Below are positions 18,899 to 60,936 of a DNA stretch of 60,936 nucleotides, piece after piece (position 1 is the first letter of the stretch; each line of letters opens with the position of its first letter). The stretch lies in IMG/VR virus record IMGVR_UViG_3300015241_000003; one strand, written 5' to 3'. Below the pieces are notes generated by a model. That model worked only from the letters and a program-made list of their open reading frames with translations. It searched no databases and had not been told where the DNA came from. Source of the stretch: a virus. The translations under genes and the position numbers were made by a program.

Positions 18899-19080
18899 TC
18901 CTTGCTCATCCTTGCCTGACTTTTTTGCTTGCGAGGCTTAGGATATCGATATTGCTTAGCATAGGTATTCAGTCCGCCCTCTGTAATATTGACTTTAATG
19001 TGCTCAGATCCCACGTTTATTGATGTCCACTGAATAGGCGTTGTGTGATCAATAATGATAAATTGCGACATTTCATTCAT
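18880..19080 (-). CDS. hypothetical protein
   Basis: 66-aa ORF overlapping the portal stop by a few nt. Confidence 0.45.
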   Translation of the reverse strand: MNEMSQFIIIDHTTPIQWTSINVGSEHIKVNITEGGLNTYAKQYRYPKPRKQKSQARMSKEWRGRA

Positions 19081-21238
19081 CCTCCACTAGCGAATATGCA
19101 TACCGCTCGTCTCCAATCGCCAGCCATAGCAGGTCAAAGTCGAGATCAATAGCAGGAACGCTATTGATCGGCATAGGATCAGTAGCAGGGATGTATGAGA
19201 GCGTGATATGGGCCGTATAGCCATGTGTTGCATCAGGAGAGAAGCCAGCCACTTGCAAGGTTTGCACCAGATCTTGACGCCACTCAGGAAGCCCAGGCGC
19301 ATCTACAGAAGCATAGACAGGTGTAGGCTCACCATCGGGTACAGAAGTGAAACGGCCTATTCCTGATACTCTCGCCTTCAGAGCAAAAGCATTCTCGGCA
19401 TAGGTTTGCACTGCTTTCTTGAGTGCATCTATGTTCCCTAGTTGGCTCTTGTCTCCCAGGAATGCCAGTGTGCAATGCAGCTCGTCAATCGGCTCACCAG
19501 TGTCTAAGACTAACGCTTGGGACTCGCTAGGTTTCAGAAAGAATGCAACCATAACGCCAGTGTTGTTAGCCTCGGCCAGATCCTCTTTGAGCCATTGAAG
19601 AAGCTCTATTCCCATTGGTGGCGTACTGAGGATAGATAGAGCCTCTTTCTGCTTATTGTTCTGGGCCAAAAGTATCTTGGGATCATACTCTTCTGGCATA
19701 AAACGAAAACGCATATTATCCTCTTTCTTAGGAGGTTGCTTGTCCTCCGGTGGTTGGTTCCCATCTTTGCCCTGGTTATCAGGATTGCCTTGCCCTTGCT
19801 GCATAGCCTGCTGAGCTCCTTGCAATGAGAGCTGAGCTTGCTGATTTTGCTCGTCCTCTAGGGTCTGCATCCGTGCTACTGGAGTGATGACGTTGCCAGT
19901 GGTGATAGTAGGGACATCGCCGCCGGGTACATCGCCTTTCCCGCGTTCCTGCCGTGCTTCATTTCTGGTCAGCGTGCCATTGCCAATAGAGGTATTTTCG
20001 ATTGAGGCAATGTCCTTGTCATCCCTATAATCTGCATGACGCGTTTGTACTCTCCAATCAGGCACATTCAAACCCGTCTTTACTGCTCTATAATTCAGCT
20101 TCTCAAGTATCCTGTTCTCTAGTGGGATAACCTTATTGTAGATAAATGATTTATTCTGGCTCTCACCCGTTCCACCACCTATATTGCCACTTTCGATAAT
20201 GCCGAGCATAGCAGGTGGTACGCCGTACACAACAAGGGCTCTATCACGCTGCTTATCCTGACTCTTATCGAAGTCCATCTCGATAGAGCCCTTGCCGAAC
20301 TCTTTCAGCTCACCACCACCATACATCACAGGAGGCTTGTGAGCGTTCTGTATGCCTGTGTAGTTCTCTTCATACCATTTGAGGTAACGCGTTCCATCCT
20401 CCTCTTCAGATTCAGGCCCCATTGATACCCAATAACTAGGCTTGCCACCTTGCCTGAAGAACTTCTCTCCCCACGTGACCATGCTCCGATCTAAGAACAC
20501 CGGGTCCTTGAGCTTCTCGATAGGCGAGAGGGCTTTCTTCTTGGCACGCGGGTCTGGTAGCCACCATCTGATAATCTCGCGAGGTTCAAAGTCAACCGTC
20601 TCTGTATTCTTCTCTAAACGCTGAGTATAGCCTGTGATGACACCGTGCCTATCAAATCGTGTATTCATGGTGAGAGAGTCGATAGTGTAGAGGTTGCGTA
20701 CAAGCCCATCGGGACCATACACCATCTCGCAAAAGGCTTCACCAAAGATAAGCATGTCTGTAGCAATGGAGTTGAAAAACTGCAAGAAGTCTTCTTCTAC
20801 ATCCTCAAATGCGAATAACGCTTTGACCTTCGCCTCGTTGGTAGCATTCCCCTTGCCCTGCTCTATCTCAACCGTCTCCCATCCTCCTGAGATCATGCGC
20901 TCAGCAGTCGTATCTACACACCCTGATACCCATTGGTTTCCGCAGTAGACCTGATAATAGGTATCCTTCTTCTGCCGCTCGTCCAGGAAGCCTTCTTTCG
21001 TCTGCACACTGCCTAGACCTAGCGATGTATCATCCCATGCCATGCTGAGGTTCTTAGGACCTTTTGCTGGTAGAGCTTTCATTGGGCGCTTTGATGCTTC
21101 TTCCAAGCTAATAATGTTGCGCTCATACATCTCTGAAGTGTGAGAATTGCTATCAAATTTGGGGATATCGTAGGGACGTTCCATCACACGGGAGCGCCGT
21201 TTGCGCGTGCGTATCCAGTTGGGAAAGCTTATCGCCAT
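19073..21238 (-). CDS. portal protein with C-terminal 2H phosphoesterase (LigT/2',5'-phosphodiesterase-like) domain
   Basis: 721-aa ORF downstream of the large terminase with a GAGGTGA RBS. A Q/P-rich linker precedes a C-terminal domain. That domain carries two H-x-T-L motifs, HCTL (codon 19475-19477) and HITL (19208-19210). Confidence 0.7.
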   Translation of the reverse strand: MAISFPNWIRTRKRRSRVMERPYDIPKFDSNSHTSEMYERNIISLEEASKRPMKALPAKGPKNLSMAWDDTSLGLGSVQTKEGFLDERQKKDTYYQVYCGNQWVSGCVDTTAERMISGGWETVEIEQGKGNATNEAKVKALFAFEDVEEDFLQFFNSIATDMLIFGEAFCEMVYGPDGLVRNLYTIDSLTMNTRFDRHGVITGYTQRLEKNTETVDFEPREIIRWWLPDPRAKKKALSPIEKLKDPVFLDRSMVTWGEKFFRQGGKPSYWVSMGPESEEEDGTRYLKWYEENYTGIQNAHKPPVMYGGGELKEFGKGSIEMDFDKSQDKQRDRALVVYGVPPAMLGIIESGNIGGGTGESQNKSFIYNKVIPLENRILEKLNYRAVKTGLNVPDWRVQTRHADYRDDKDIASIENTSIGNGTLTRNEARQERGKGDVPGGDVPTITTGNVITPVARMQTLEDEQNQQAQLSLQGAQQAMQQGQGNPDNQGKDGNQPPEDKQPPKKEDNMRFRFMPEEYDPKILLAQNNKQKEALSILSTPPMGIELLQWLKEDLAEANNTGVMVAFFLKPSESQALVLDTGEPIDELHCTLAFLGDKSQLGNIDALKKAVQTYAENAFALKARVSGIGRFTSVPDGEPTPVYASVDAPGLPEWRQDLVQTLQVAGFSPDATHGYTAHITLSYIPATDPMPINSVPAIDLDFDLLWLAIGDERYAYSLVEDE

Positions 21239-24898: not shown

Positions 24899-24953
24899 AG
24901 CATGCACCTCCAGAGCTTATTGTACCTTCTCATGGCAAATAATAGAGAATAAG

Positions 24954-25003
24954 AGCCATATGGCCGAAAAGTAGTCAAAATATAGAAGCCATATGGCCGA
25001 AAA
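24954..25003. repeat. two 17-bp direct repeats AGCCATATGGCCGAAAA, 33 bp apart (putative operators)
   Basis: Exact copies at 24954-24970 and 24987-25003. Each contains the palindrome GCCATATGGC. They lie upstream of the 24898 HTH gene. Confidence 0.7.
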
Positions 25004-25010
25004 ACAGAGA

Positions 25011-25046
25011 AATAGCTTCTGTAAATTAGGGTTTACAGAAGCTATT
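25011..25046 (-). terminator. intrinsic terminator (perfect 15-bp stem)
   Basis: AATAGCTTCTGTAAA / TTTACAGAAGCTATT, followed on the minus strand by TCTCTGTTTTTCGG. Confidence 0.7.
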
Positions 25047-26406: not shown

Positions 26407-27029
26407 ATCATCAAATCCCTCTCTACATCATGCCAATCATGCCAGCCGTATCGCGCAGCATTCTCACCCAGGTTCGCAATCGCCCTGATGAGAATAGCGG
26501 TCGCCTGTGCATCCCACAACGCCCTGTGCTGCTGTGGGCCAAGCAAAATATCTTGCTGAGCTAAAGCCTCTTCTAGTTTCTGCCAAGCTGGCTCGAAATA
26601 GCCGTATCTGTTCGGCTCGCCATAGAACGCGGCGTACTCGAGCATAGCACAATGCCACGTCAGCTCAGGCAATGTGACGTTGTGAGCATTGGCTGTATGA
26701 GCCAGCCTACCCGAGTCGAACTTAGCATTGTAGGCTATGATCGACTTGCCTCTGATTAGCTCTAGGATTGAAATCCAGGCCTCTGCAAAACAAGGGCTAT
26801 CAATTATCATGGATGCATCGATATGATGCACACGTGTGGCCTGAGCCTCAATAGGGCATGCTGGAGAGAGGAGACTATCGTAGAGGACATTTCCCTGGAT
26901 ATCGACAATAGCCAGGTCGATGATTTCACCTTTTAATCCTGTGGTTTCTGTATCGAGAACAACATATTTATCGCTCTCGACGACTTCTCTACACCAATCT
27001 ATAAAGCTTCCTTCTATTCTCTTAATCAT
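26403..27029 (-). CDS. DEDDh 3'-5' exonuclease (DnaQ/epsilon-like)
   Basis: ExoI VVLDTETTGL, ExoII IIAYNAKFDSGRL and ExoIII HRALWDAQAT motifs are present. Confidence 0.85.
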   Translation of the reverse strand: MIKRIEGSFIDWCREVVESDKYVVLDTETTGLKGEIIDLAIVDIQGNVLYDSLLSPACPIEAQATRVHHIDASMIIDSPCFAEAWISILELIRGKSIIAYNAKFDSGRLAHTANAHNVTLPELTWHCAMLEYAAFYGEPNRYGYFEPAWQKLEEALAQQDILLGPQQHRALWDAQATAILIRAIANLGENAARYGWHDWHDVERDLMI

Positions 27030-27610
27030 CCCTGTATACCTTTCAATCCTAATATCTCGACTATCTGTTCCAGCACACCTTTCGATGGTCGGGCGTGTGC
27101 CGTCTCGTAGCCCTGGATAGATGTCTTGGCAATGCGTCTGCCATCCTTCCGATAGATCTTATGCGCAAGTTCCTCCTGTGTCCATCCCAACCCTTCACGT
27201 GCTTCTCTCATCTTGCGCCCTAACTCCTCATCACCTACTTTCAGTGTTCCTTGGCCTGTCAGCACTCGCGGCTTAGGCTGTGCTTGGTTGGCTTCCCACT
27301 CCTGTCTGCATTCCTCAAGCGATGGGTAGCTTTGCAAGATTTGAAACACGCACCGCTTCATCTCCTTTGACCACAGAAGCGATAGCTGGCATCGCAGGCA
27401 GTAGATCCTACCATCCATGCTGTGGTAGAGGATACGTGCCTTACAGCCTGCACAGGCATACTGAGCGGACACCACGTACGGTATGCCGCTCTTGAGCTCT
27501 CTCTTCAGCTCAATGACGAGAGCTTCGAGCTTTCGCTGGTAGTACTCGTCAAAGCTCTCACGCTGCATCATTTGGTTCCCTGACCAGTGCTTCTTCTCAG
27601 CTTCAATCAT
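27026..27610 (-). CDS. zinc-ribbon plus XRE-type HTH protein
   Basis: CAGC...CLRC in the N-terminal half. The C-terminal HTH reads LGWTQEELAHKIYRKDGRRIAKTSIQGYE. Confidence 0.6.
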   Translation of the reverse strand: MIEAEKKHWSGNQMMQRESFDEYYQRKLEALVIELKRELKSGIPYVVSAQYACAGCKARILYHSMDGRIYCLRCQLSLLWSKEMKRCVFQILQSYPSLEECRQEWEANQAQPKPRVLTGQGTLKVGDEELGRKMREAREGLGWTQEELAHKIYRKDGRRIAKTSIQGYETAHARPSKGVLEQIVEILGLKGIQG

Positions 27611-29966: not shown

Positions 29967-31109
29967 TTACTTAAATGTAAACTTCTGTGTAGCCTTATTG
30001 CCTAAAGTAACCTTCTGCGTTTCCTGTGTCTCCATTTGTGCTTGGTATTGAGCACTTTTCCATCTCGAATACTCACTTACCACGTGCCCTAGCTCCTTAG
30101 ACTTTCCCTCGTAAAAGCCGTTTCTGTCGTTTTTCTTGGCAAAGTTGAGCACCTTGAAGATAATGTCCTTGGAGATCTCAACCTTGGAGAGCGTCTCACA
30201 GTGCTGAGCAGCCGTCTCTGTGAGCTTGGGAGGTATGCCCTTATTCCATGGCATGTCGAGCCAGATATCCCAGACGCGTCGCCCGGCCTCTGAAAGCGCG
30301 GGCTCTTCCAATTTTGGCAGGGGTTTCTGTAAGGGCTCGGTGTTACGTGTCACACGAACGCTTTTCTTGGAAGAGGTCTTTCGTGTAGTTTTTGGCTCTA
30401 CGGGTGTTGTATCTGTTGTGGCTATAGGAGATGCATGTTGTTCTAACTGCTCCTGCTCAAGGCGAGTTGCTTCAGCTACGTGGTAAGCGATTTGTTCAGA
30501 AACAGAAAGTTCAGTCGGTGGGGCATCGACGTTAGTCGCTATACCGTTAGGTATATTATCTATGTTAGGTTTCTTAGTAGATTCTATGTTGCGTTTACTT
30601 TTAGACGGGTCATCGTCTACTAATAGACGGGTATCCCGTTTACTTTTAGACGCGTCCTCAGAATTATCCCGTCTATTAGTAGACGCGTCTACTTTTGGAC
30701 GCGTGTGTTTAGGCTCTCTTTCAGGCAGATCCTTTACTCTATGGTTAAGTTCCTGACAGTTAAGCCGATACTTATAAGTATCCTTTCCGTACATTCGGTG
30801 TTTTTCGCGGGATATGAGACCTTCACCTATCAGCTCTTCTAGGCTATCAATGATGACACATCTGCCAAACATGCTATACATAGCTTCTGTCCATTGGGGA
30901 TAGGTCATGTAGATGCTCAGGTCCTCGCCTTTACCGCGCTTATCGTTTGTCCAGCTTTCGAGAATAGCTAAGATGAAAGCTTTGCAATGAGGGGATGCCT
31001 TGCTCTTACTCTTCCTATAAGAGCAGCCCTGGCAGATGTGCAGATACTCTTCCCGAAGCTCTATAAAGTAGTAGTTTGCCCTGTGCTCAATGACGCTATT
31101 ATTACTCAT
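29967..31109 (-). CDS. replication initiator (lambda O-like; origin inside the gene)
   Basis: 380-aa ORF directly upstream of dnaB. It has a winged-helix-like N-terminal domain, and its low-complexity middle is encoded by five dyad repeats. Confidence 0.55.
   Translation of the reverse strand: MSNNSVIEHRANYYFIELREEYLHICQGCSYRKSKSKASPHCKAFILAILESWTNDKRGKGEDLSIYMTYPQWTEAMYSMFGRCVIIDSLEELIGEGLISREKHRMYGKDTYKYRLNCQELNHRVKDLPEREPKHTRPKVDASTNRRDNSEDASKSKRDTRLLVDDDPSKSKRNIESTKKPNIDNIPNGIATNVDAPPTELSVSEQIAYHVAEATRLEQEQLEQHASPIATTDTTPVEPKTTRKTSSKKSVRVTRNTEPLQKPLPKLEEPALSEAGRRVWDIWLDMPWNKGIPPKLTETAAQHCETLSKVEISKDIIFKVLNFAKKNDRNGFYEGKSKELGHVVSEYSRWKSAQYQAQMETQETQKVTLGNKATQKFTFK
30592..30701. repeat. 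putative origin: five 16-bp dyad sites CGT(C/T)TA-N4-T(A/G)GACG
   Basis: Sites at 30592-30607, 30614-30629, 30637-30652, 30670-30685 and 30686-30701. Examples are CGTCTACTAATAGACG and CGTCTATTAGTAGACG. Confidence 0.65.
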
Positions 31110-34019: not shown

Positions 34020-34237
34020 GCTGATGTTGCCTTCCTTCCGTAGTCGTGCTCAATGGCATGCTTGATAAGTAGTTCTTTCTTGTGAATACCAGTCTTGAGC
34101 ATAATGCTATAAACATGGTCATATACTGTTATTACGCTAATACCAAGATTTACGCTTATATCCTCGTAAGTTCTATGTTCTGCTAATAGCCCGAGGACTT
34201 GCTTTTCTCTTGGGCTTATTGGTCCTTCGCGTCTCAT
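34016..34237 (-). CDS. LuxR/GerE-type HTH regulator (stand-alone sigma70 region-4-like)
   Basis: ISPREKQVLGLLAEHRTYEDISVNLGISVITVYDHVYSIMLKTG, with a GGAGGGAG RBS. Confidence 0.7.
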   Translation of the reverse strand: MRREGPISPREKQVLGLLAEHRTYEDISVNLGISVITVYDHVYSIMLKTGIHKKELLIKHAIEHDYGRKATSA

Positions 34238-34279
34238 GTGGACTCCCTCCTATCTAGCCAAAAAAGACAAGGGTATTAT

Positions 34280-34328
34280 CCGTAATTATACGGTACTATC
34301 TCTAGTACTGTCATTCCGTAAAATTACG
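34280..34328 (-). promoter_or_regulatory. promoter ATGACA-18-TATAAT flanked by CCGTA..TACGG palindromes
   Basis: On the minus strand, -35 is at 34309-34314 and -10 at 34285-34290. Palindrome CCGTAATTATACGG (34280-34293) overlaps the -10. CCGTAAAATTACG (34315-34327) lies just upstream of the -35. Confidence 0.5.
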
Positions 34329-34804
34329 TATTTTGCAGCTATCAATATGCCGAGCTGTACCGGGAAGCCGATCTGCGCTAAAAATGGGTGTGTTAAATTC
34401 CTGTCAAGTAGGCCAAGTAGCTGAGCCCGTATAGGCATGATGATTCCACATATACTCGAATAGTATGTTGAGGCATGCGGATTGATGCATGTAAGGTGTA
34501 AGGCGGAGGCAGGTTGTAGTACGACATATGAGTTCACTTTCTTGATTTCTTGTGTAAAGAGTTTATGGCTGAGTTTACACTTTTAGTGTACATGTTAAAA
34601 TTACATTAAGGCGCGGACTTTGGATGCGCTTTGTGGTTGCAATGTCTTAACAAGTAGATACAAAGTGGTTGTGATTGTGTGTTGCTGGTTGAGGACATGA
34701 AGATATCCGTATACCGGGTGATTCCCCTATATACGGACGTGGTACGATATGTGGTTGAGGCGCGTATTCCATGTTATTGTAGACCCACTACAACTTCACG
34801 TGCC

Positions 34805-35032
34805 TCATATTTCTGGATGATCTGGGAATGTTACAAGCTCTCGAATGGGTACTCCTAAAGCTTGCGATAGTGCTTGCATTTCTCCGGGTCCTGGGAACCT
34901 TGTCCCGTTTTCCCATCGCCTGATCGTGCTAATGTGTACTCCCATGATGATAGCAAGTTTCTGCTGTGTCATCTTCTCTTTCTGGCTCTTGCGGATCTGC
35001 CTCAGTCGCAACGGGAACAGGTCTTCTAGCAC
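34805..35032 (-). CDS. XRE-family (Cro/CI-type) HTH regulator
   Basis: MTQQKLAIIMGVHISTIRRWENG. GTG start. It is divergent from the H-NOX-like gene. Confidence 0.75.
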   Translation of the reverse strand: MLEDLFPLRLRQIRKSQKEKMTQQKLAIIMGVHISTIRRWENGTRFPGPGEMQALSQALGVPIRELVTFPDHPEI

Positions 35033-35224
35033 AGCAGGCCTTATCTAGTTTCGCACTACTATAGCAGAGACTAGACGCCCAAAGGCTAGCCATAATGGCT
35101 ATCTTTTCAATCGCTTTATAGTACAATTGGTGCATTTCAATGGCATGATATACTGAACATTCCGCCTATTCAAAACAACAGTTCTTGTGTAATTTATTGG
35201 AACAAGTGTACTAGGAGGTTTACT

Positions 35225-36007
35225 ATGCACGGTCTGATTTTTGCGACCTGGGAGAAGTTCTTGTCAGAAAGGTACGGCACACCGATACTAGAGGAGTATA
35301 GAGCGTCTATAGCAGATACAGATGCAAAGTGGGCATTGACATCTCGCATGTATGACGACTCGATACTGATTAGGGGAGTAGAGACTACCAGTAGGAAGAC
35401 TGGTATCTTTGCCACGACGCTGCTCCGAGAGTACGGGCGTTACTTTCTGAACAACAATCTGACCAACCACCTATGCGCCTATTTGCTCAGCAGAGCGACA
35501 TCTGCCAAGGATTTGCTCATGCAGATACGCGGTCCACTCTTCACCTTCACGGCGTACTCAGACGGCTCTCAGCGACTCCTGTTGCAGTATGATAGCAATC
35601 GCTTCCTGTGCTCTCTGATGGTTGGATGCATTGAAGGTGCTGCTGATCGCTTCAAAGAGAGCGTGAGGGTCCAGGAGCTGTCCTGTATGCGGTTCGGTGC
35701 TCCGCTGTGTTTGATGGATGTGAGGTTTGAGAGGAATACGGAATCGCTTGAGGACTTGAGTGTGCTGAACAGGCAAAGCGAGTTGAGATGGATAGCTGAT
35801 GAGGTGCTGAAGCTGCTACCACCGGCTGGTGGTTACACGTTGCCTCAGATAGAAATGCTGCTGAGGGCGCATCCAGGGATACCGGTAGAGCAGGTGCGCA
35901 GGAGTGCGACCTACAATGCGGTGACACACTTGCAGCATGCGGGGCTTGTGGCGAGTAGTGCTGACATTGGGGACCTGCTACAGACGAGAAGGTATAGGCG
36001 GGTGTGA
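35225..36007 (+). CDS. H-NOX (HNOB)-like sensor domain fused to C-terminal winged-helix domain
   Basis: AGGAGG RBS. The N-terminus MHGLIFATWEKFLSERYG and a Y-x-S-x-R motif (YDSNR, 35588-35602) followed by LMVGCIEGAADRF fit H-NOX. The C-terminal YTLPQIEMLLRAH..ATYNAVTHLQHAGLV is wHTH-like. Confidence 0.65.
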   Translation: MHGLIFATWEKFLSERYGTPILEEYRASIADTDAKWALTSRMYDDSILIRGVETTSRKTGIFATTLLREYGRYFLNNNLTNHLCAYLLSRATSAKDLLMQIRGPLFTFTAYSDGSQRLLLQYDSNRFLCSLMVGCIEGAADRFKESVRVQELSCMRFGAPLCLMDVRFERNTESLEDLSVLNRQSELRWIADEVLKLLPPAGGYTLPQIEMLLRAHPGIPVEQVRRSATYNAVTHLQHAGLVASSADIGDLLQTRRYRRV

Positions 36008-36096
36008 GTAAGGGAGCTACTTTGCTCCCTATTTTTATGTCCAGAATGAATATCTATCAGTTTTGAAAATTGGTCATAAATCAATGCAAAAAGCCC

Positions 36097-36157
36097 TTGA
36101 CAACATAAAGGTTGTCATGCTATACTTCTAATAGTGAAGACAACATAAAGGTTGTCA
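36097..36157 (+). promoter_or_regulatory. promoter TTGACA-18-TATACT (extended -10) with two copies of a 20-bp palindromic operator
   Basis: TGACAACATAAAGGTTGTCA at 36098-36117 overlaps the -35. AGACAACATAAAGGTTGTCA at 36138-36157 lies downstream of the -10 (36121-36126). Confidence 0.7.
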
Positions 36158-36178
36158 ATAAAGATTAAGGAGCAAGCG

Positions 36179-36625
36179 ATGAAGACTCTTGATTTCGGAA
36201 AGCATGAAGGCGAAAAACTAGCGGAGTGTCCAGTATCTTATATCAAGTGGCTGGCTACTCACAAGGCAGTTTTAGCTGAAAGAAATCGTTGGGCTTCTAG
36301 ACTTGCCAAGAAGCTTCTACAGGAGAAAGAGATGAGCTATCAAGTTGGACAGGCTGTAAAAATCGTCGACGCAATTGGTGGTACGGTTTGCGCCACAGTA
36401 GTTAGTGTTAACGATGAGAAGATCTCAGCAACACTGCTACACACAGGTGGCACCTACGAGTATGACAATGAGAGCTTGGCACCTGCTACAGAACAAGACC
36501 TTGCAGATGCAAAGAGGTGGCACGAGCGGAATGTGTCAATCTTCGGTGGTGTTCGTCCTCTGAGTCACATGGATGTTCCTGCTGACTTCGGAATGTTTGA
36601 TGAAGACGGCGTACGCATAGCATAG
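36179..36625 (+). CDS. DUF3820-like protein
   Basis: ATG 36179 with an AAGGAG RBS. The N-terminal LDFGKHEGEKLAECPVSYIKWL matches the FGK.kG..l.e.P..Y..W motif. Confidence 0.55.
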   Translation: MKTLDFGKHEGEKLAECPVSYIKWLATHKAVLAERNRWASRLAKKLLQEKEMSYQVGQAVKIVDAIGGTVCATVVSVNDEKISATLLHTGGTYEYDNESLAPATEQDLADAKRWHERNVSIFGGVRPLSHMDVPADFGMFDEDGVRIA

Positions 36626-36632
36626 GAGTGAT

Positions 36633-36896
36633 GTGAAAGACATGGCAAACAGAAAAGTAGAAGGTCCGTACCAAGTCAAGAATATTGGTGCTAATGGAGA
36701 TGTGTACAAGGTAGTCTATATGTTAGATGAGCAGAAGAACACCTATCAAGAGTTAAATCCTGATAGGACTTATCTAAAGAGGCAGTCAGCTTTTAGACGT
36801 GCTCTTAATCTAAACAAAAAGTGGAATGAAGAGCGCGTGTTTGATGATGTTTATAGTGATCTAGAGATGCAAGAAGAGTTAGAATATCCTGGATAA
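36633..36896 (+). CDS. hypothetical protein
   Basis: 87-aa ORF starting at GTG 36633 or ATG 36642. Confidence 0.5.
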   Translation: MKDMANRKVEGPYQVKNIGANGDVYKVVYMLDEQKNTYQELNPDRTYLKRQSAFRRALNLNKKWNEERVFDDVYSDLEMQEELEYPG

Positions 36897-36911
36897 AGAA
36901 AGGGAAACACG

Positions 36912-37226
36912 ATGAGCAATTATGACGATTTATTCAAGCAGGCATTGCGCAAGTGCGATGATGCCTCAGTCGCAACAGAGATCAAGAGTATGTGGAATGA
37001 TTGTGATCCACGCGATTCCAATCGAGATCTGCCAACAGACAGGCCTGCTGATCGCAGGTACAAGCAGTATATCAGAGATGTGCAATCTCTCTCATCAGCA
37101 GATGAGATTATCGCCTATGCTGAAAAACGGATCGCACAGTTTCAGAAGTGGTATGAGACTACTTTTGTGGATGAGATCGCCGCCTATGACAAGAGGCAAG
37201 CAGAGCGTTTAGCTAATCCAGAGTAG
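36912..37226 (+). CDS. hypothetical protein
   Basis: 104-aa ORF with an AAAGGGAAA RBS. Confidence 0.5.
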   Translation: MSNYDDLFKQALRKCDDASVATEIKSMWNDCDPRDSNRDLPTDRPADRRYKQYIRDVQSLSSADEIIAYAEKRIAQFQKWYETTFVDEIAAYDKRQAERLANPE

Positions 37227-37268: not shown

Positions 37269-38027
37269 TTATCCAATCGTTCTAATTGTCCAGAAATCGC
37301 TCGCCAGCCCTTTATTCATGAGATACTCGTAAGGTATTTCAAAGTAGCCAGTGCCATTGATACCCCATCCTGTACCCCAACTATTGCGACAAATGAACCT
37401 CTGTACGTCATCCTTATAGCCACAACATAAAACCGCGTGGCCACCCAAAACCTGCTCGTCTGGCCCGGGCATAGGCACAATTCCCCTACCAGCCACGTCC
37501 TGACTTTCAAAGCTGCTATAGACAGTAAACCCATAGACAAAGGGATAACCGCTCGCCAGACACGCTTTCATCTGTGTAAGGTTGCGAGTCACTCGCTGGT
37601 AGCTCACAGCCTTGTCTAGCTGGGCTTGCTGGTAGCAAAGGGCAGACGGCCTGGTCGTGAATTGCGAGATGTCGTAGGGCCATTCTGGTTCGCTACAGGC
37701 CCCTTGCTTATTCACGCTCTTGATGCCATCACGGATCATCGCCCCGGAGTCGCTGCTAACTGTATGCTCCATGACGCGCTCATTGAAGTAGATAAATAAC
37801 CTGGAAGGTGTGAAGTCTGGCAGCCCCTGTTTCACCCGATCAAACTCAATAGCCCCTGCAATGGCATTGGCTGTGCAGCTCCCCAGATTGCCTTGGTCAT
37901 ACACAGGCGGACACCCGGGCCTCAGATCTGCACTCGGCGGTAAAGCTGCGATGTGCTCAAGTGGTGCTGAGTACATATGGTCGCGTGTATCCGGTAAGTC
38001 GGGTATCCATCCTAATTTATGAGTCAT
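37269..38027 (-). CDS. papain-like cysteine peptidase (family C1)
   Basis: Catalytic signatures YDQGNLGSCTANA (Gln/Cys), GGHAVLCCGY (His) and CRNSWGTGWGINGTGYF (Asn-Ser-Trp). No signal peptide or long propeptide is apparent. Confidence 0.9.
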   Translation of the reverse strand: MTHKLGWIPDLPDTRDHMYSAPLEHIAALPPSADLRPGCPPVYDQGNLGSCTANAIAGAIEFDRVKQGLPDFTPSRLFIYFNERVMEHTVSSDSGAMIRDGIKSVNKQGACSEPEWPYDISQFTTRPSALCYQQAQLDKAVSYQRVTRNLTQMKACLASGYPFVYGFTVYSSFESQDVAGRGIVPMPGPDEQVLGGHAVLCCGYKDDVQRFICRNSWGTGWGINGTGYFEIPYEYLMNKGLASDFWTIRTIG

Positions 38028-38257
38028 CCCTGTACCTCATTTCTGGCAATAGCTGAATTAGCGTGCATAATAGCCTCTTCTAGCTTCGTGAGGGCTAGCG
38101 ACTGCTCACGTGAGACAGGTGTCTCATTCACGATCTGTACAGCGAGCAGTCTACCAGCCTCACGTAAAGCGGCATAGCGGGCTACTTGATCACCGTGGGG
38201 ACTGTGATAGGTAAAGTCATTATTTACTCGTTTGATGAGGTCTTCTTTTGTAAGCAT
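38024..38257 (-). CDS. hypothetical protein
   Basis: Start placed at ATG 38257 (AAAGGA RBS). The 77-aa helical product has an ATGA overlap with the peptidase gene. Confidence 0.5.
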   Translation of the reverse strand: MLTKEDLIKRVNNDFTYHSPHGDQVARYAALREAGRLLAVQIVNETPVSREQSLALTKLEEAIMHANSAIARNEVQG

Positions 38258-38268
38258 GTTCAATCCTT

Positions 38269-38499
38269 TCAATGAGTAGATACTGGGTACTCTGTAGTTC
38301 CATCGGTAGGAGATTTCTCTTTTTCTAGCATTTCTATAATAGAGAGAAAATCTCTAAGAAATCCAGGATCTAGCCGTTCTACTAGTCCTTTGATGATTTT
38401 AAGCGTCTCATCAGTACTTGACGAGACAATGATTTCAAGCAGCTTTTGAGATATATCTGCTTGAATTTGCTTAATTTCTATCCCTGGGTATGCAGTCAT
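38269..38499 (-). CDS. hypothetical protein
   Basis: 76-aa ORF with a GGAGGGAG RBS. Confidence 0.5.
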   Translation of the reverse strand: MTAYPGIEIKQIQADISQKLLEIIVSSSTDETLKIIKGLVERLDPGFLRDFLSIIEMLEKEKSPTDGTTEYPVSTH

Positions 38500-47332: not shown

Positions 47333-47821
47333 CTATGCTCCTTTCTTCAGCTTCTCAGCCTCAGCTCTGTACTCTTGCGCCCAAGCCTTTTGACGTGCCT
47401 TGTCGCGTTTGTGGATCTCGCGCCACTCCTCAACGGTGAGAGGTCGGCTACCGTCGTACTGCTCAGGCGTGTGTACCTCCTCAACTTTGGGCTCCACAAC
47501 CTTCTCAGCTTTGGCCTGCACCACGTGCTCAACGACATACTGCTGAGCAACGGTGGTATGAGCATGAGCTTTGCAATTGGCCCCGCATGAGCACTGGTAC
47601 TGGTTACGCTCTGTATTGAACTTCACAGCATAGTAGCGTTGTGCTCTGCGCTCAGATGCTACCAGGAAGAACGTCTCGCCCTCTGCGATGTGGCTATTGC
47701 CAATCGTGAAGCTCTTGCGAGCTGTACACTTGACGACCTTCTTGGTGATGTTCTCGATGAGTACGGTTGCCTCGACCTGGGGCAGTGCTTTGGCTGTACG
47801 CTTCGATGTGCTGTGGTTCAT
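47333..47821 (-). CDS. hypothetical protein with SWIM-like CxC..CxH motif
   Basis: GGAGG RBS and a YQCSCGANCKAHAH motif. Confidence 0.5.
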   Translation of the reverse strand: MNHSTSKRTAKALPQVEATVLIENITKKVVKCTARKSFTIGNSHIAEGETFFLVASERRAQRYYAVKFNTERNQYQCSCGANCKAHAHTTVAQQYVVEHVVQAKAEKVVEPKVEEVHTPEQYDGSRPLTVEEWREIHKRDKARQKAWAQEYRAEAEKLKKGA

Positions 47822-47968
47822 GGTGATTGTCCTCCGCTTTACGTTTATTGTTCCGCTTGGTATGTAAGAAGGATAACACGAGAACGTGAGATTGTCAAGA
47901 GGTTTACACTGATATTTTTACGAATGTGCTTATGTGGTCGCAAATTGATTGCCATGTGGGTAACTACG

Positions 47969-47997
47969 TTGACAATAGTGTACTCTCATGATATTCT
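47969..47997 (+). promoter_or_regulatory. sigma70-type promoter TTGACA-17-TATTCT (extended -10 TG)
   Basis: -35 at 47969-47974 and -10 at 47992-47997, in a divergent intergenic region. Confidence 0.6.
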
Positions 47998-48043
47998 TAG
48001 AACAAGCCAAGGGCTTATGGCTCTTGAGAAATGGAGGATACAA

Positions 48044-48289
48044 ATGTCTAAACTAATTATTAAGGAAGTTGCAGTAAAAAAGGGGCTTAACCAGAGTCAG
48101 CTACAACTTAAAGCGGCGGTTACTCCTCAGCTCCTTTATCGTTACTGGCATAACTTCACAAAGAGCGTAGAGCTAGAACAGCTTGAGAAAATAGCAACCG
48201 CTTTAGAAGTAGATCCGGGTGAGTTACTCGTGTCTGAGAAGAAGTACAAGGCCATGACAGCACAATCTGAAGAGCCAAGTGTGGCATAG
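48044..48289 (+). CDS. XRE-family HTH regulator
   Basis: ATG 48044 after GGAGGA. LNQSQLQLKAAVTPQLLYRYWHN is HTH-like. Confidence 0.65.
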   Translation: MSKLIIKEVAVKKGLNQSQLQLKAAVTPQLLYRYWHNFTKSVELEQLEKIATALEVDPGELLVSEKKYKAMTAQSEEPSVA

Positions 48290-48389: not shown

Positions 48390-49496
48390 GTGACTACTCC
48401 AAGAGAAAGGCGGCCACGCCAACGCGTTGTGCCACAGCCAGCGCATAGCGTTCTTAACCACAAGAACGATCATGTCACCCGCCAAATAGAACGAGGTCTC
48501 ATGCAAGCAAGGGAGTACAAGGTGAACGAGAAAGCTAATCAACTCATGTATCACCATGAATTTGAAGCACCTAGAAGGAGTATTGGAGAGATACGGTTTC
48601 TTGTAAAGGGTCTGGCTGAGCAAGCACACGAAAAGATTACCGTAGCACTAGATTCGCTTGGGGATGCTTGCCGAGATACCTTCGTTGCGATTACTGCTCT
48701 CGGTATCCAGAAAAACGGTACTGACAACATGTGCGCCACATTCAAAGTCTCTGTAGATGAAATACTCGATGCCTGTGGCAAACAAAGAAGCAACGGATCT
48801 TTTAACCCCGAGGCTAGAGCAGAAGTCATTAAGCATGTCAAAACACTCTCTCAGACTCAGATCAAATTCACCATGCCAACAACAAGGCAGGTAAAACAAG
48901 GCAGGAAGTGGGTATGGGAAGACAGTGAAATTAAGGTTATTGGTCCTATCATCGTCTACAGTGGGACTATTGGTGAGTATATGCGGATCACTGGCAAGGA
49001 GTTATGGGAGGTACAGGTTGTCGCACTTGGCCCCTGGGCTGAATTCACTGGTGGTAAAGTAACGACAAAGGTTATGCCTCAACAAGTCCTGGCTTACTCT
49101 TCAAAATTAGAGCCCTATCATAAGAAATTAGGACACTATCTGTCCGAACTGTTCCGCAACAATGCCCGTGAGACTAAAGGTGTTATGCCACATGGGATTA
49201 CCATGAGAGCACTCTTTGAAGGCGCTCTCATTGAACCTCCACGCAATCGAGGCGAATTTAAGAGCGATATCGACAAGGCTTTAGACCACCTAAAGCAAGA
49301 TAGCGTGATTGGGAGCTACTGGTACATGTCAGAGAAGAATCAGCCAGCAGCATGTCAAATAGTTGAGAAGCGCATGGGTCGCTGGTTCGATGTGTACCTT
49401 GGCTTGTTCATCAATTTCTCACCGCCTAAGAGCACACTTGACCACTACAAGAACATAGCAAAGAGGGAGGGCACAGCAGAGGATGAAAACAGCTAA
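48390..49496 (+). CDS. putative iteron-binding replication/maintenance protein
   Basis: 368-aa ORF with a GTG start after GGGAGG. Three perfect 21-bp direct repeats follow it immediately. I recognised no motif-level family. Confidence 0.35.
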   Translation: MTTPRERRPRQRVVPQPAHSVLNHKNDHVTRQIERGLMQAREYKVNEKANQLMYHHEFEAPRRSIGEIRFLVKGLAEQAHEKITVALDSLGDACRDTFVAITALGIQKNGTDNMCATFKVSVDEILDACGKQRSNGSFNPEARAEVIKHVKTLSQTQIKFTMPTTRQVKQGRKWVWEDSEIKVIGPIIVYSGTIGEYMRITGKELWEVQVVALGPWAEFTGGKVTTKVMPQQVLAYSSKLEPYHKKLGHYLSELFRNNARETKGVMPHGITMRALFEGALIEPPRNRGEFKSDIDKALDHLKQDSVIGSYWYMSEKNQPAACQIVEKRMGRWFDVYLGLFINFSPPKSTLDHYKNIAKREGTAEDENS

Positions 49497-49512
49497 CTTG
49501 TATGGTACAAGT

Positions 49513-49575
49513 TCCACTGTTAGACGTACTGAATCCACCGCAAGACGTACTAACTCCACTGTTAGACGTACTAAC
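49513..49575. repeat. three tandem 21-bp iterons TCCAC(T/C)G(T/C)(T/A)AGACGTACT(G/A)A(A/C)
   Basis: Units at 49513-49533, 49534-49554 and 49555-49575, head to tail with no spacer. An AT-rich stretch follows. Confidence 0.85.
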
Positions 49576-49689
49576 TCAGCTCAAAAAGGCGTTTAATAAA
49601 CTTAATAAAATTAAGTGTGAGAGCGTGTCTTTAGCTAACGCCAGACACGACTCACATAGGGAACGAAGAGAGAGCTGAACATTCCTGCA

Positions 49690-60633: not shown

Positions 60634-60936
60634 CTAGATGAAGTAGCCATAGATATACCAGTCCTGCAAGACGATATTTGCGCCACTTGCTTTGACCGTG
60701 ATTTGTCCGCCTGCGGAAAGAGGCGCGATCACAACCCCCATGCAATACGTGTTTGTAGGCCCCGCTGCCGTAAAATTGGCATACTGCCCTGGCGTTGCTC
60801 CCGTTGGATAAATTGAGACGGACCCTCCCTGCGCAGTGACAGAGAAGATCCCGACTTGGAGCAACACAGCAATAGCGCCGCTTGGGATACCGCCAACGCC
60901 TGTACATGTCAAGGTGGTCGTGTTGCCATTGTTGAC
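60634..60936 (-). CDS. small tail fibre-like protein, C-terminal part (continues from 299..1)
   Basis: Frame is continuous with 1-299 across the overlap. Stop is TAG at 60634-60636. The product is Gly/Thr/Ala-rich and beta-rich. Confidence 0.6.
   Translation of the reverse strand, partial: VNNGNTTTLTCTGVGGIPSGAIAVLLQVGIFSVTAQGGSVSIYPTGATPGQYANFTAAGPTNTYCMGVVIAPLSAGGQITVKASGANIVLQDWYIYGYFI
60860..60936. repeat. terminal overlap identical to 1-77
   Basis: Same 77-nt string as the window start. Confidence 0.95.

Follow-up and report, generated by a model that had tools for sequence, protein, structure and literature searches.

A tailed-phage genome held as the IMG/VR record IMGVR_UViG_3300015241_000003 (60,936 nucleotides; this whole stretch of DNA is called the window below) was found to encode a 260-amino-acid protein, in which an N-terminal domain with the H-NOX fold is joined to a C-terminal winged-helix domain. 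Its relatives clearly point to Ktedonobacteria as the source of the gene, and the protein lacks the proximal His of H-NOX together with the end of helix alphaF. The reading that we prefer, in which we place middling confidence, is that this protein is a regulator of the one-component type, captured from a Ktedonobacteria host, that works independently of the haem-ligating His and is either constitutive or switched by thiol/redox chemistry. H-NOX proteins are the archetypal sensors of nitric oxide (NO), found in animal soluble guanylate cyclase (sGC) and in bacterial pathways of biofilm formation and quorum sensing; to our knowledge, they occur as stand-alone proteins acting on kinases and cyclases or as fusions with chemoreceptors.

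An H-NOX Domain without the Proximal His

The assignment of the N-terminal domain to H-NOX is solid, with the profile hidden Markov model (HMM), the sequence, and the fold in agreement. The Pfam family HNOB (PF07700) matched residues 2-150, corresponding to profile positions 1-162 of 163, with an E-value of 3.1e-17 (63.4 bits against a cutoff of 25.5). The alternative family V4R (PF02830) was rejected: its 24.1 bits stayed below the cutoff of 31, and its match covered residues 127-167 alone, nested within that of HNOB. Among solved structures, phmmer retrieved H-NOX from Shewanella (PDB 4u9b, E 1.2e-6), Thermoanaerobacter/Caldanaerobacter (1u4h, 1.9e-5), and Nostoc (2o09, 0.01). The full-length protein was also modeled with AlphaFold2 (AF2) from 54 homologues at a mean predicted local distance difference test score (pLDDT) of 83.4, and the top 45 matches of this model in a Foldseek search of the PDB were all H-NOX or sGC beta1, the best being 2o09 with an E-value of 4.6e-10 and a template-modeling (TM) score, on the target, of 0.78; the TM scores reached 0.79. 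The first-pass annotation, which was made from the letters of the DNA, had proposed a phage-encoded sensor joined to a winged helix-turn-helix (wHTH), with HNOB hallmarks in residues 1-165 and an N-terminus like that of Thermoanaerobacter H-NOX; the architecture is upheld by the HMM, sequence, and fold evidence, and the N-terminal likeness holds in the alignment.

For the haem site, we aligned the window protein with its family members and with the Shewanella (So) and Thermoanaerobacter (Tt) H-NOX, where the So sequence was taken from the phmmer alignments and the Tt sequence was entered by hand. Counts of conserved residues, here and below, were taken over the 120 best relatives, eight of which belong to a phage clade and 112 of which do not (the latter being cellular where checked). 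The Y-x-S-x-R haem-propionate motif (YDSNR), recognized already in the first pass, aligns with Y131/S133/R135 of Tt H-NOX; its Tyr is kept in 120/120 homologues and its Arg in 119/120. Also, P104 aligns with the conserved proximal Pro (Tt P115), and G71 and G134 align with the glycine hinge. The position of the distal Tyr140 in the O2-binding Tt protein is taken by Leu131, and all 120 relatives have Val, Leu, or Ile there; an apolar distal pocket of this kind is typical of NO-selective H-NOX.

At the proximal-His column (Tt H102, So H103, sGC beta1 H105), the window protein has a gap. Compared with its own family, 14-15 residues are deleted, namely the His, the last two turns or so of alphaF, and the loop to the conserved Pro, so that LLLxMRxA-HAQMRRxPDGLTPPLF of the cellular relatives corresponds to LLMQIRG/PLF (the slash marks the junction), over which the AF2 model remains confident (pLDDT 78-88). 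The first-pass annotation had rightly seen this segment to be shortened but underestimated the loss at 10-12 residues, and its candidate for a replacement ligand, His82 (LTNHLCAY), was rejected: this residue aligns with Tt W81, occurs in relatives with an intact proximal His too, and varies among the other His-less copies, being Gln in two of them (P0013 and P0017).

According to PMC7108781, the proximal His is kept without exception among 598 H-NOX sequences, and the NO signal is passed on as the Fe-His bond ruptures and alphaF moves, with a rotation about the Gly hinge. With the His and the C-terminal turns of alphaF deleted, therefore, the classical Fe-His switch cannot operate, and classical gas sensing is probably lost from the copy in the window. 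Because the HMM match, the fold, the YxSxR motif, and the Pro are all present while the proximal His is not, we class this domain as having the H-NOX fold but a degenerate haem site, rather than as a canonical haem H-NOX.

A Conserved Cys3/Glu Site

In So H-NOX, a Zn ion is bound by C139, H161, C164, and C172, and the haem-free H-NOX of Vibrio (Vc) senses oxidation at its Zn site, where the resulting conformational change mimics NO binding (PMC7108781). The three Cys ligands of the So/Vc proteins align exactly with C129, C154, and C162 of the window protein; the fourth position is Glu151, instead of the His or Gln of the Zn-site subgroup. These three Cys residues and the Glu are invariant in 120/120 family members. 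Glu is able to ligate Zn, but the site is a variant of that in the subgroup; it may bind this metal. In terms of the gas or redox sensing suggested in the first pass, the redox part survives through this Cys3/Glu site, whereas sensing of NO or O2 by haem is weakened by the deletion of the proximal His and the alphaF end, by the failure of His82 as a substitute, and by the further decay of the pocket described below.

A Family-Specific Winged Helix

The AF2 model places helices at residues 176-197, 206-215, and 226-238 of the C-terminal region, and strands at residue 204, 242-244, and 257-259. When residues 171-260 were modeled separately (pLDDT 82.9), nearly all of the top 50 Foldseek matches were wHTH proteins (Nur/Fur/PerR, MarR, ArsR, PadR, and histone H1). 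The scores were modest, with a best E-value of 8.6e-3 and query-based TM scores of 0.5-0.70, and the likeness to Fur/PerR (E 8.6e-3 or weaker) reflects the generic winged-helix fold only; the wHTH that the first pass had placed at residues ~185-250 is nonetheless borne out by the topology of the model and its structural neighbors. No sequence match to this domain was obtained in Pfam, NCBIfam, or the PDB, including a sequence-profile search of the last. An exhaustive search of 1.84e9 cluster representatives with its profile found 64 proteins, all of which belong to the same family or are its fragments; the module is thus family-specific and unseen with other sensors.

The family pattern …RPSxLLEALxHLQHAGLVxS…GDxLxxRRYWR is, in our own reading, presumably comparable to a MarR-type recognition helix followed by a wing. 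In the N-terminal half of this helix, phage copies (SATYNAV/SAAYNSI/RTAYTAI) depart systematically from host copies (PSxLLEAL), whereas the C-terminal half and the wing (HLQHAGLV…RRYWR) are conserved from phage to host. Judging from the predicted structure, the winged helix would bind DNA.

Origin in Ktedonobacteria

A search of a large database returned 427 relatives, most of them ~280 amino acids in length, with 100% query coverage and 41-58% identity; those with names are called “heme NO-binding domain-containing protein” of Ktedonobacteraceae, and their contigs reach 827 kb. When one genome per species was scanned, 106 relatives were found, all in Ktedonobacteria (Ktedonobacter, Dictyobacter, Thermogemmatispora, Thermosporothrix, Tengunoibacter, and Ktedonosporobacter, plus metagenome-assembled genomes) and often two per genome. 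The terminase of the phage, furthermore, has its nearest named relatives (82% and 76% identity) in Ktedonobacteraceae bins, in agreement with the host suggested by the H-NOX family; relatives of the terminase number in the thousands, and contigs of 90-110 kb are among those that carry one. The phage gene is clearly host-derived, and the host of the phage is probably a soil member of Ktedonobacteria.

The window protein is collinear over its full length with this ~280-residue family (for example, in Ktedonobacter racemifer, Dictyobacter, and Thermogemmatispora), sharing 38-58% identity, the domain architecture, the invariant residues, and the family-specific C-terminal domain. The cellular proteins differ in that none of the 112 has lost the proximal His, the alphaF-beta1 segment being complete, and are encoded by stand-alone chromosomal genes, the neighborhoods of which are ordinary and unconserved (glycosyltransferases once, Suf/LytB/Rrf2 in others). 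They also keep the Pro, the YxSxR motif, the apolar distal pocket, and the Cys3/Glu site. In the cellular family, what appears to be a classical haem H-NOX of the NO type is thus coupled straight to a winged helix.

Among viruses, on the other hand, relatives are rare. The protein had no match in PHROGs or NCBIfam, by megablast, or by tblastn against 50,697 GenBank phage records; no credible H-NOX fold was present among the BFVD structures; and a search of IMG/VR gave only one contig with H-NOX. The literature that we searched contained nothing on H-NOX in phages or in Ktedonobacteria, nor on its fusion to DNA-binding domains.

Recurrent Loss of the His in Phages

A single clade unites the eight proteins that are closest to the query, and the genomic contexts that could be read (the window and the contigs L001/L002, L003, L006, and L007) are all syntenic phage regions, having genes for XRE, GerE, and sometimes sigma factors at the left and for C1 peptidase, Bro-N, or DnaB nearby; L003 is itself a viral genome in IMG/VR. 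The homologue in L003 (7981-8777) was called 20 bases short, as an upstream in-frame ATG gives the family N-terminus MHGLILAMWEK.

The proximal His is kept in 115 of the 120 proteins, and the five without it (the window protein, P0005, P0006, P0013, and P0017) all fall in the phage clade; that is, the His is lost in 5/8 phage-clade proteins and in 0/112 of the others. All four His-less copies that could be placed lie in syntenic phage contexts. The boundaries of the deletion differ among these copies, and P0017 has a His-to-Arg change plus a 9-residue gap. In a tree built with the indel columns excluded, bootstrap values were 100% for {P0002-P0006}, 94% for {P0005, P0006}, and 98% for the His-retaining {P0002-4}. 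Since P0005 and P0006 group with His-retaining proteins, their deletion is independent of that in the window, and the sequences thus indicate that the His was lost through at least two independent deletions.

Other positions of the haem pocket have changed as well. In the window protein, the cell-invariant Met at the Tt M98 column has become Ile, and the His-less copies have a change in the cell-invariant Phe at the Tt L117 column. Of the His-less proteins, 4/5 have lost the Ser of YxSxR, versus 7/115 others (Fisher p = 1.9e-4); the window protein keeps S124. The Cys3/Glu site and the winged-helix core are, by contrast, untouched in the His-less copies.

Regulatory DNA around the Gene

The features of the gene and its flanks are collected in Table 1. 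As the first-pass annotation had it, the H-NOX gene is divergent from an XRE repressor-type gene; the latter heads a leftward block of ~35 kb with regulatory, replication, and structural genes, and the H-NOX gene is among the few on the plus strand. Its ATG start codon lies six bases 3' of an AGGAGG (35213-35218).

Table 1. Positions of the H-NOX-winged-helix gene, its domains and sites, and the neighboring regulatory elements in the window
Feature	Position	Strand	Basis
Gene for the 260-residue H-NOX-winged-helix protein	35225..36007 (stop codon included)	+	Open reading frame (ORF), HMM, fold
H-NOX-fold domain, residues 1-170	35225..35734	+	Pfam HNOB match and Foldseek
Deletion junction G103/P104; His-bearing segment of the family (…A-HAQMRRxPDGLTP…) absent	35531..35536 (junction 35533/35534)	+	Alignments
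YDSNR, Y-x-S-x-R haem-propionate motif (Y122, S124, R126)	35588..35602	+	Alignment with Tt Y131/S133/R135
Cys129 (35609-11), Glu151 (35675-7), Cys154 (35684-6), Cys162 (35708-10)	35609..35710	+	Alignment with So C139/H161/C164/C172
Linker helix (residues 176-197) and winged-helix domain (residues ~198-260); recognition helix, residues 226-238; wing, RRYRR	35750..36004	+	AF2, Foldseek
Cro-like XRE (HTH_3) gene, divergent from the H-NOX gene	34805..35032	-	HTH_3, E 3.2e-13
Putative extended -10 TGcTATAGT, leftward early promoter of the XRE gene and the long minus-strand operon	35058..35066 (35060-35068 by the alignment)	-	Inference
Dyad TAGCCATaATGGCTA between the two divergent promoters	35087..35101	.	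Arms co-vary among phages; GGTATCCAAcTTGGATACC in L003
Putative -10 TACAAT of the H-NOX gene promoter	35122..35127	+	TGnTATAAT in other phages, five-phage alignment; inference
Intrinsic terminator after the H-NOX gene, GC stem and T-run	36011..36037	+	RNA fold, z = -3.2
Strong sigma-70-type promoter TTGACA-18-TATACT (36097-36126) with two identical palindromic operators (36098-36117 and 36139-36157)	36097..36157	+	Drives small operon 36179-37226

In the alignment of the intergenic region, TATAGCAGA at 35060-35068 is invariant in 5/5 phages. The dyad between the putative promoters occurs in three types, which match three types of the XRE recognition helix (VHIST/VHVSS, VDVRT, and VVVNS); it would most simply be an operator of XRE, though five genomes cannot separate this from shared ancestry. 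A stem-loop in the 5'-untranslated region (a conserved GTTCTTG…GAACAA block) was dropped, as it was no stabler than shuffled sequences (z = +0.9 and +0.7), and an Rfam scan of 34200-36400 gave nothing credible.

Downstream of the gene, GACAACATAAAGGTTGTCA is present in two exact 19-bp copies, at 36099 and 36139 (at least two matches in 0/100 shuffles), and no further copy of the 18-bp operator was found in the window, even at 3 mismatches. The first-pass annotation had drawn attention to the H-NOX gene lying just upstream of this promoter with duplicated operators. The element is real, but the functional link thereby implied is unsupported by synteny: in L003, a near-identical element (TGACAACAAAATGATGTCA twice) is inverted, its operon converging on the H-NOX gene, and in L001, L006, and L007 no such element lies near the gene, so that its adjacency is no evidence of binding by the H-NOX protein. 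Upstream of 75 cellular family genes, neither a conserved palindrome nor enrichment of the phage operator half-site was found. A palindrome, AGGTTGTGTACTCAACCT, does occur ~190-200 bp upstream of the cellular H-NOX-wHTH gene in three close genomes of Ktedonobacter spp. (L017, L024, and L025) and only in these; it may be a genus-specific operator or reflect shared ancestry.

Two copies of AGCCATATGGCCGAAAA, 33 bp apart at 24949-25012, contain the palindrome GCCATATGGC, the half-site of which resembles the intergenic dyad (GCCAT-N0-2-ATGGC occurs 4 times versus 0.28 expected); the regulator that binds the dyad may have another binding region here. Two proteins of 194 and 216 amino acids with a C-terminal XRE-type HTH, encoded at 27026-27610 (minus strand) and 47639-48289 (plus strand), are further candidate repressors for the operators at 36098-36157. 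The 567 bp between the GerE-type and XRE genes (34238-34804) hold no convincing ORF; in L003 and L007, a sigma-70-family gene is found there, of which tblastn detected no remnant in the window.

The Phage Genome

The window represents a complete tailed-phage genome of ~60.86 kb with 47.9% GC, which closes on itself through an exact 77-bp terminal direct repeat (1-77 and 60860-60936). Its genes encode a terminase, portal, major head protein, protease, tape measure, Dit, tail proteins, endolysin, DnaB, a DnaD-like loader, Rad52, and an exonuclease. Among the ~45 ORFs scanned, which include three large ones without any match, no integrase, recombinase, or other lysogeny gene was found. A switch of the lambda CI/Cro type would have shared operators between a regulator gene and a divergent Cro-like gene; in the window, the two genes are divergent with a dyad between their putative promoters, and this dyad tracks the XRE types. 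The idea of the first pass that sensing feeds a phage decision is not established: no lysogeny module was found, the operators are inconsistently linked to the gene, and a role in a lysis-lysogeny decision finds no support in the gene content.

A few genes from the H-NOX gene, an ORF for a papain-family C1 cysteine peptidase (37269-38027, minus strand; Pfam E 2.9e-13) is located similarly in L003, L006, and L007 and is an unusual cargo for a phage early region. Upstream of it, an 81-residue ORF (38024-38272, minus strand) matches Pfam Acb2_Tad1_hairpin with 56.1 bits (cutoff 27) and is likely an anti-CBASS/anti-Thoeris cyclic-nucleotide sponge, with a homologue at the same position in L007. 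Three direct repeats of 22-23 bp (CGTTTACTTTTAGACGGGTC-like, 30592-30659) inside the gene for the DnaD-like loader (29967-31109) are iteron-like and may mark a replication origin, and three tandem 21-bp repeats (GTACTAACTCCACTGTTAGAC-like, 49505-49577) directly follow an ORF with no family match (48390-49496). The portal (19073-21238, minus strand) has an unusual C-terminal extension (residues 551-721), matching PHROGs annotated as RNA ligase or head-maturation protease.

Proposed Mechanism and Alternatives

Our preferred reading, namely a regulator freed from the haem-ligating His, builds on what was observed: the domain is identified, the deletion is present and recurs in phage copies, the Cys site and the winged helix are conserved, and the gene carries expression signals of its own. 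The cellular ancestor would have been an NO-type haem H-NOX sensor with a long linker helix and the family-specific winged helix, from which an in-frame deletion in the phage copy has excised the proximal His and the C-terminal turns of alphaF. The protein might then be locked in one signaling conformation or be switched by oxidation at Cys129/Cys154/Cys162 (with Glu151), for which the haem-free Vibrio H-NOX serves as the model. Expression would be early, using a promoter and a terminator of the gene's own at the head of the early region; phage early promoters and/or host genes are the probable targets. The hinge, the Pro, the motif Tyr and Arg, the Cys3/Glu site, the linker, and the DNA-binding domain have evidently been kept under constraint.

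Several observations weigh against this reading. The phage lineage P0002-4 retains the His, meaning that its loss is unnecessary for the function in phages. Zn binding is deduced from alignment only, and the fourth ligand is Glu in place of His/Gln. The evidence also points to no particular DNA target: the dyad follows the XRE protein no less closely than the H-NOX protein, and three of the related phages have no duplicated operators near the gene. Also, haem might presumably bind without the His, as So H-NOX H103G retains haem (PDB 2kil, among the matches), and haem binding is conceivable here with Tyr122 and Arg126 still in place.

The main rival, which we regard as possible but unlikely, is a decoy or dominant-negative protein, which would heterodimerize with the H-NOX-winged-helix paralogues of the host or occupy their operators in a signal-blind manner and thereby uncouple the NO-responsive program of the host from its signal during infection. 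The host origin of the gene and the frequent presence of two paralogues in hosts would suit such a role, as would the repeated emergence of signal-blind variants in phages only and the sharing of the wing and the C-terminal half of the recognition helix between phage and host. The N-terminal part of this helix, which would contact the bases, differs between them, however, suggesting another DNA specificity; furthermore, no conserved host operator could be defined, and one phage lineage keeps the His.

That the protein remains a classical haem gas sensor, in which haem held through YxSxR is either five-coordinate or has an alternative axial ligand (Met99, His82, or Cys84) and NO, O2, or CO controls DNA binding, we consider improbable. 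The above-threshold HNOB match, the retention of Y122/S124/R126, P104, and the Gly hinge, and the apolar distal pocket as in NO-selective H-NOX would all fit, and the L99M change is new in the window protein and P0017. Nonetheless, the ligand that is universal among known H-NOX (598 sequences; PMC7108781) is deleted with about two turns of alphaF, and the additional pocket residues have decayed in the His-less copies. No compensating ligand is apparent either: His82 occupies the Tt W81 column and is replaced by Gln in P0013/P0017, and members that have the His share Cys84 without exception.

Quite improbable, and conceived by analogy, is a pocket that has come to take something other than haem, for instance a metal-free porphyrin or another dicarboxylate, which Tyr122 and Arg126 would hold. 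These two residues are invariant even in the His-less copies, and the sGC activators cinaciguat and BAY 60-2770 occupy the haem-free pocket in an analogous way and activate sGC, with the ligand structures 4iae and 5mnw among our fold matches. The case is purely analogical, however; the motif Ser is lost in 4/5 His-less proteins, and the Tyr and Arg are perhaps structural.

A decaying passenger gene without function in the phage, for which the loss of a key residue and the faster divergence of the phage clade might speak, is very improbable given the intact frame in five phage contigs (47-61% identity between sub-lineages and 78-88% within one), the retention of ~30 family-invariant residues, the Cys site, and the wing, the syntenic position with its own Shine-Dalgarno sequence, promoter-like elements, and terminator, and the confident model across the junction (pLDDT 78-88).

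Comparison with Known Systems

The stand-alone H-NOX of So and Vc (PDB 4u9b and 2kii) share with the window protein the fold, direct sequence similarity (E 1e-6), the YxSxR motif, the Pro, the Gly hinge, the apolar pocket, and the Zn-site Cys residues. They are single-domain proteins that act by inhibiting a histidine kinase partner (HnoK), always have the proximal His, and use His/Gln as the fourth Zn ligand, whereas the window protein is fused to a winged helix, lacks the His segment, has Glu at the fourth position, and is borne by a phage.

Loss of haem ligation has a precedent in the H-NOX-like domain of the sGC alpha-subunit, which is retained as a structural or regulatory module. This domain differs in being part of a eukaryotic, heterodimeric cyclase with no DNA-binding output, and its fold match is weak (E ~2e-3; 6jt0_A/8hbe_A). 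A phage homologue of a one-component sensor/DNA-binding regulator of the host, also placed in a regulatory region, is known as VqmA-Phi of vibriophage VP882; this PAS/LuxR-type protein binds 3,5-dimethylpyrazin-2-ol (DPO), has an intact sensing site, and is linked to the induction of lysis. The concept is alike, but the window protein has an unrelated sensor fold and a degenerate sensing site. In CooA, NsrR, and PerR/Fur, similarly, a cofactor or thiol sensor controls a (winged) HTH, with sensor domains that are not homologous.

Conclusions

The analysis documents a direct H-NOX-to-DNA-binding architecture of the one-component type in a whole uncharacterized family of Ktedonobacteria. It also documents the capture of this gene by phages and a recurrent, phage-specific loss of the His with the Zn-type Cys site and the DNA-binding domain kept. 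A more speculative scenario, which is tentative and to our mind unlikely as a whole, would be that phages captured an NO-responsive H-NOX factor of the host and repeatedly deleted its Fe-His switch, giving a “locked-on” mimic of the NO state or a haem-free sensor of thiols or porphyrins, by which the NO program of the host is imposed or overridden or the early genes are timed.

If true, this would be the first viral H-NOX and a natural counterpart of the signal-state mimicry in engineered H103G mutants. For H-NOX biochemists, the interest lies in a direct DNA output and in natural His-less variants; for phage biologists, it lies in a sensor-regulator of the host that was captured and then blinded. 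If confirmed, the phage proteins would provide a natural experiment on conformational signaling by haem-free H-NOX and a new case of phages borrowing the sensory regulators of their hosts.

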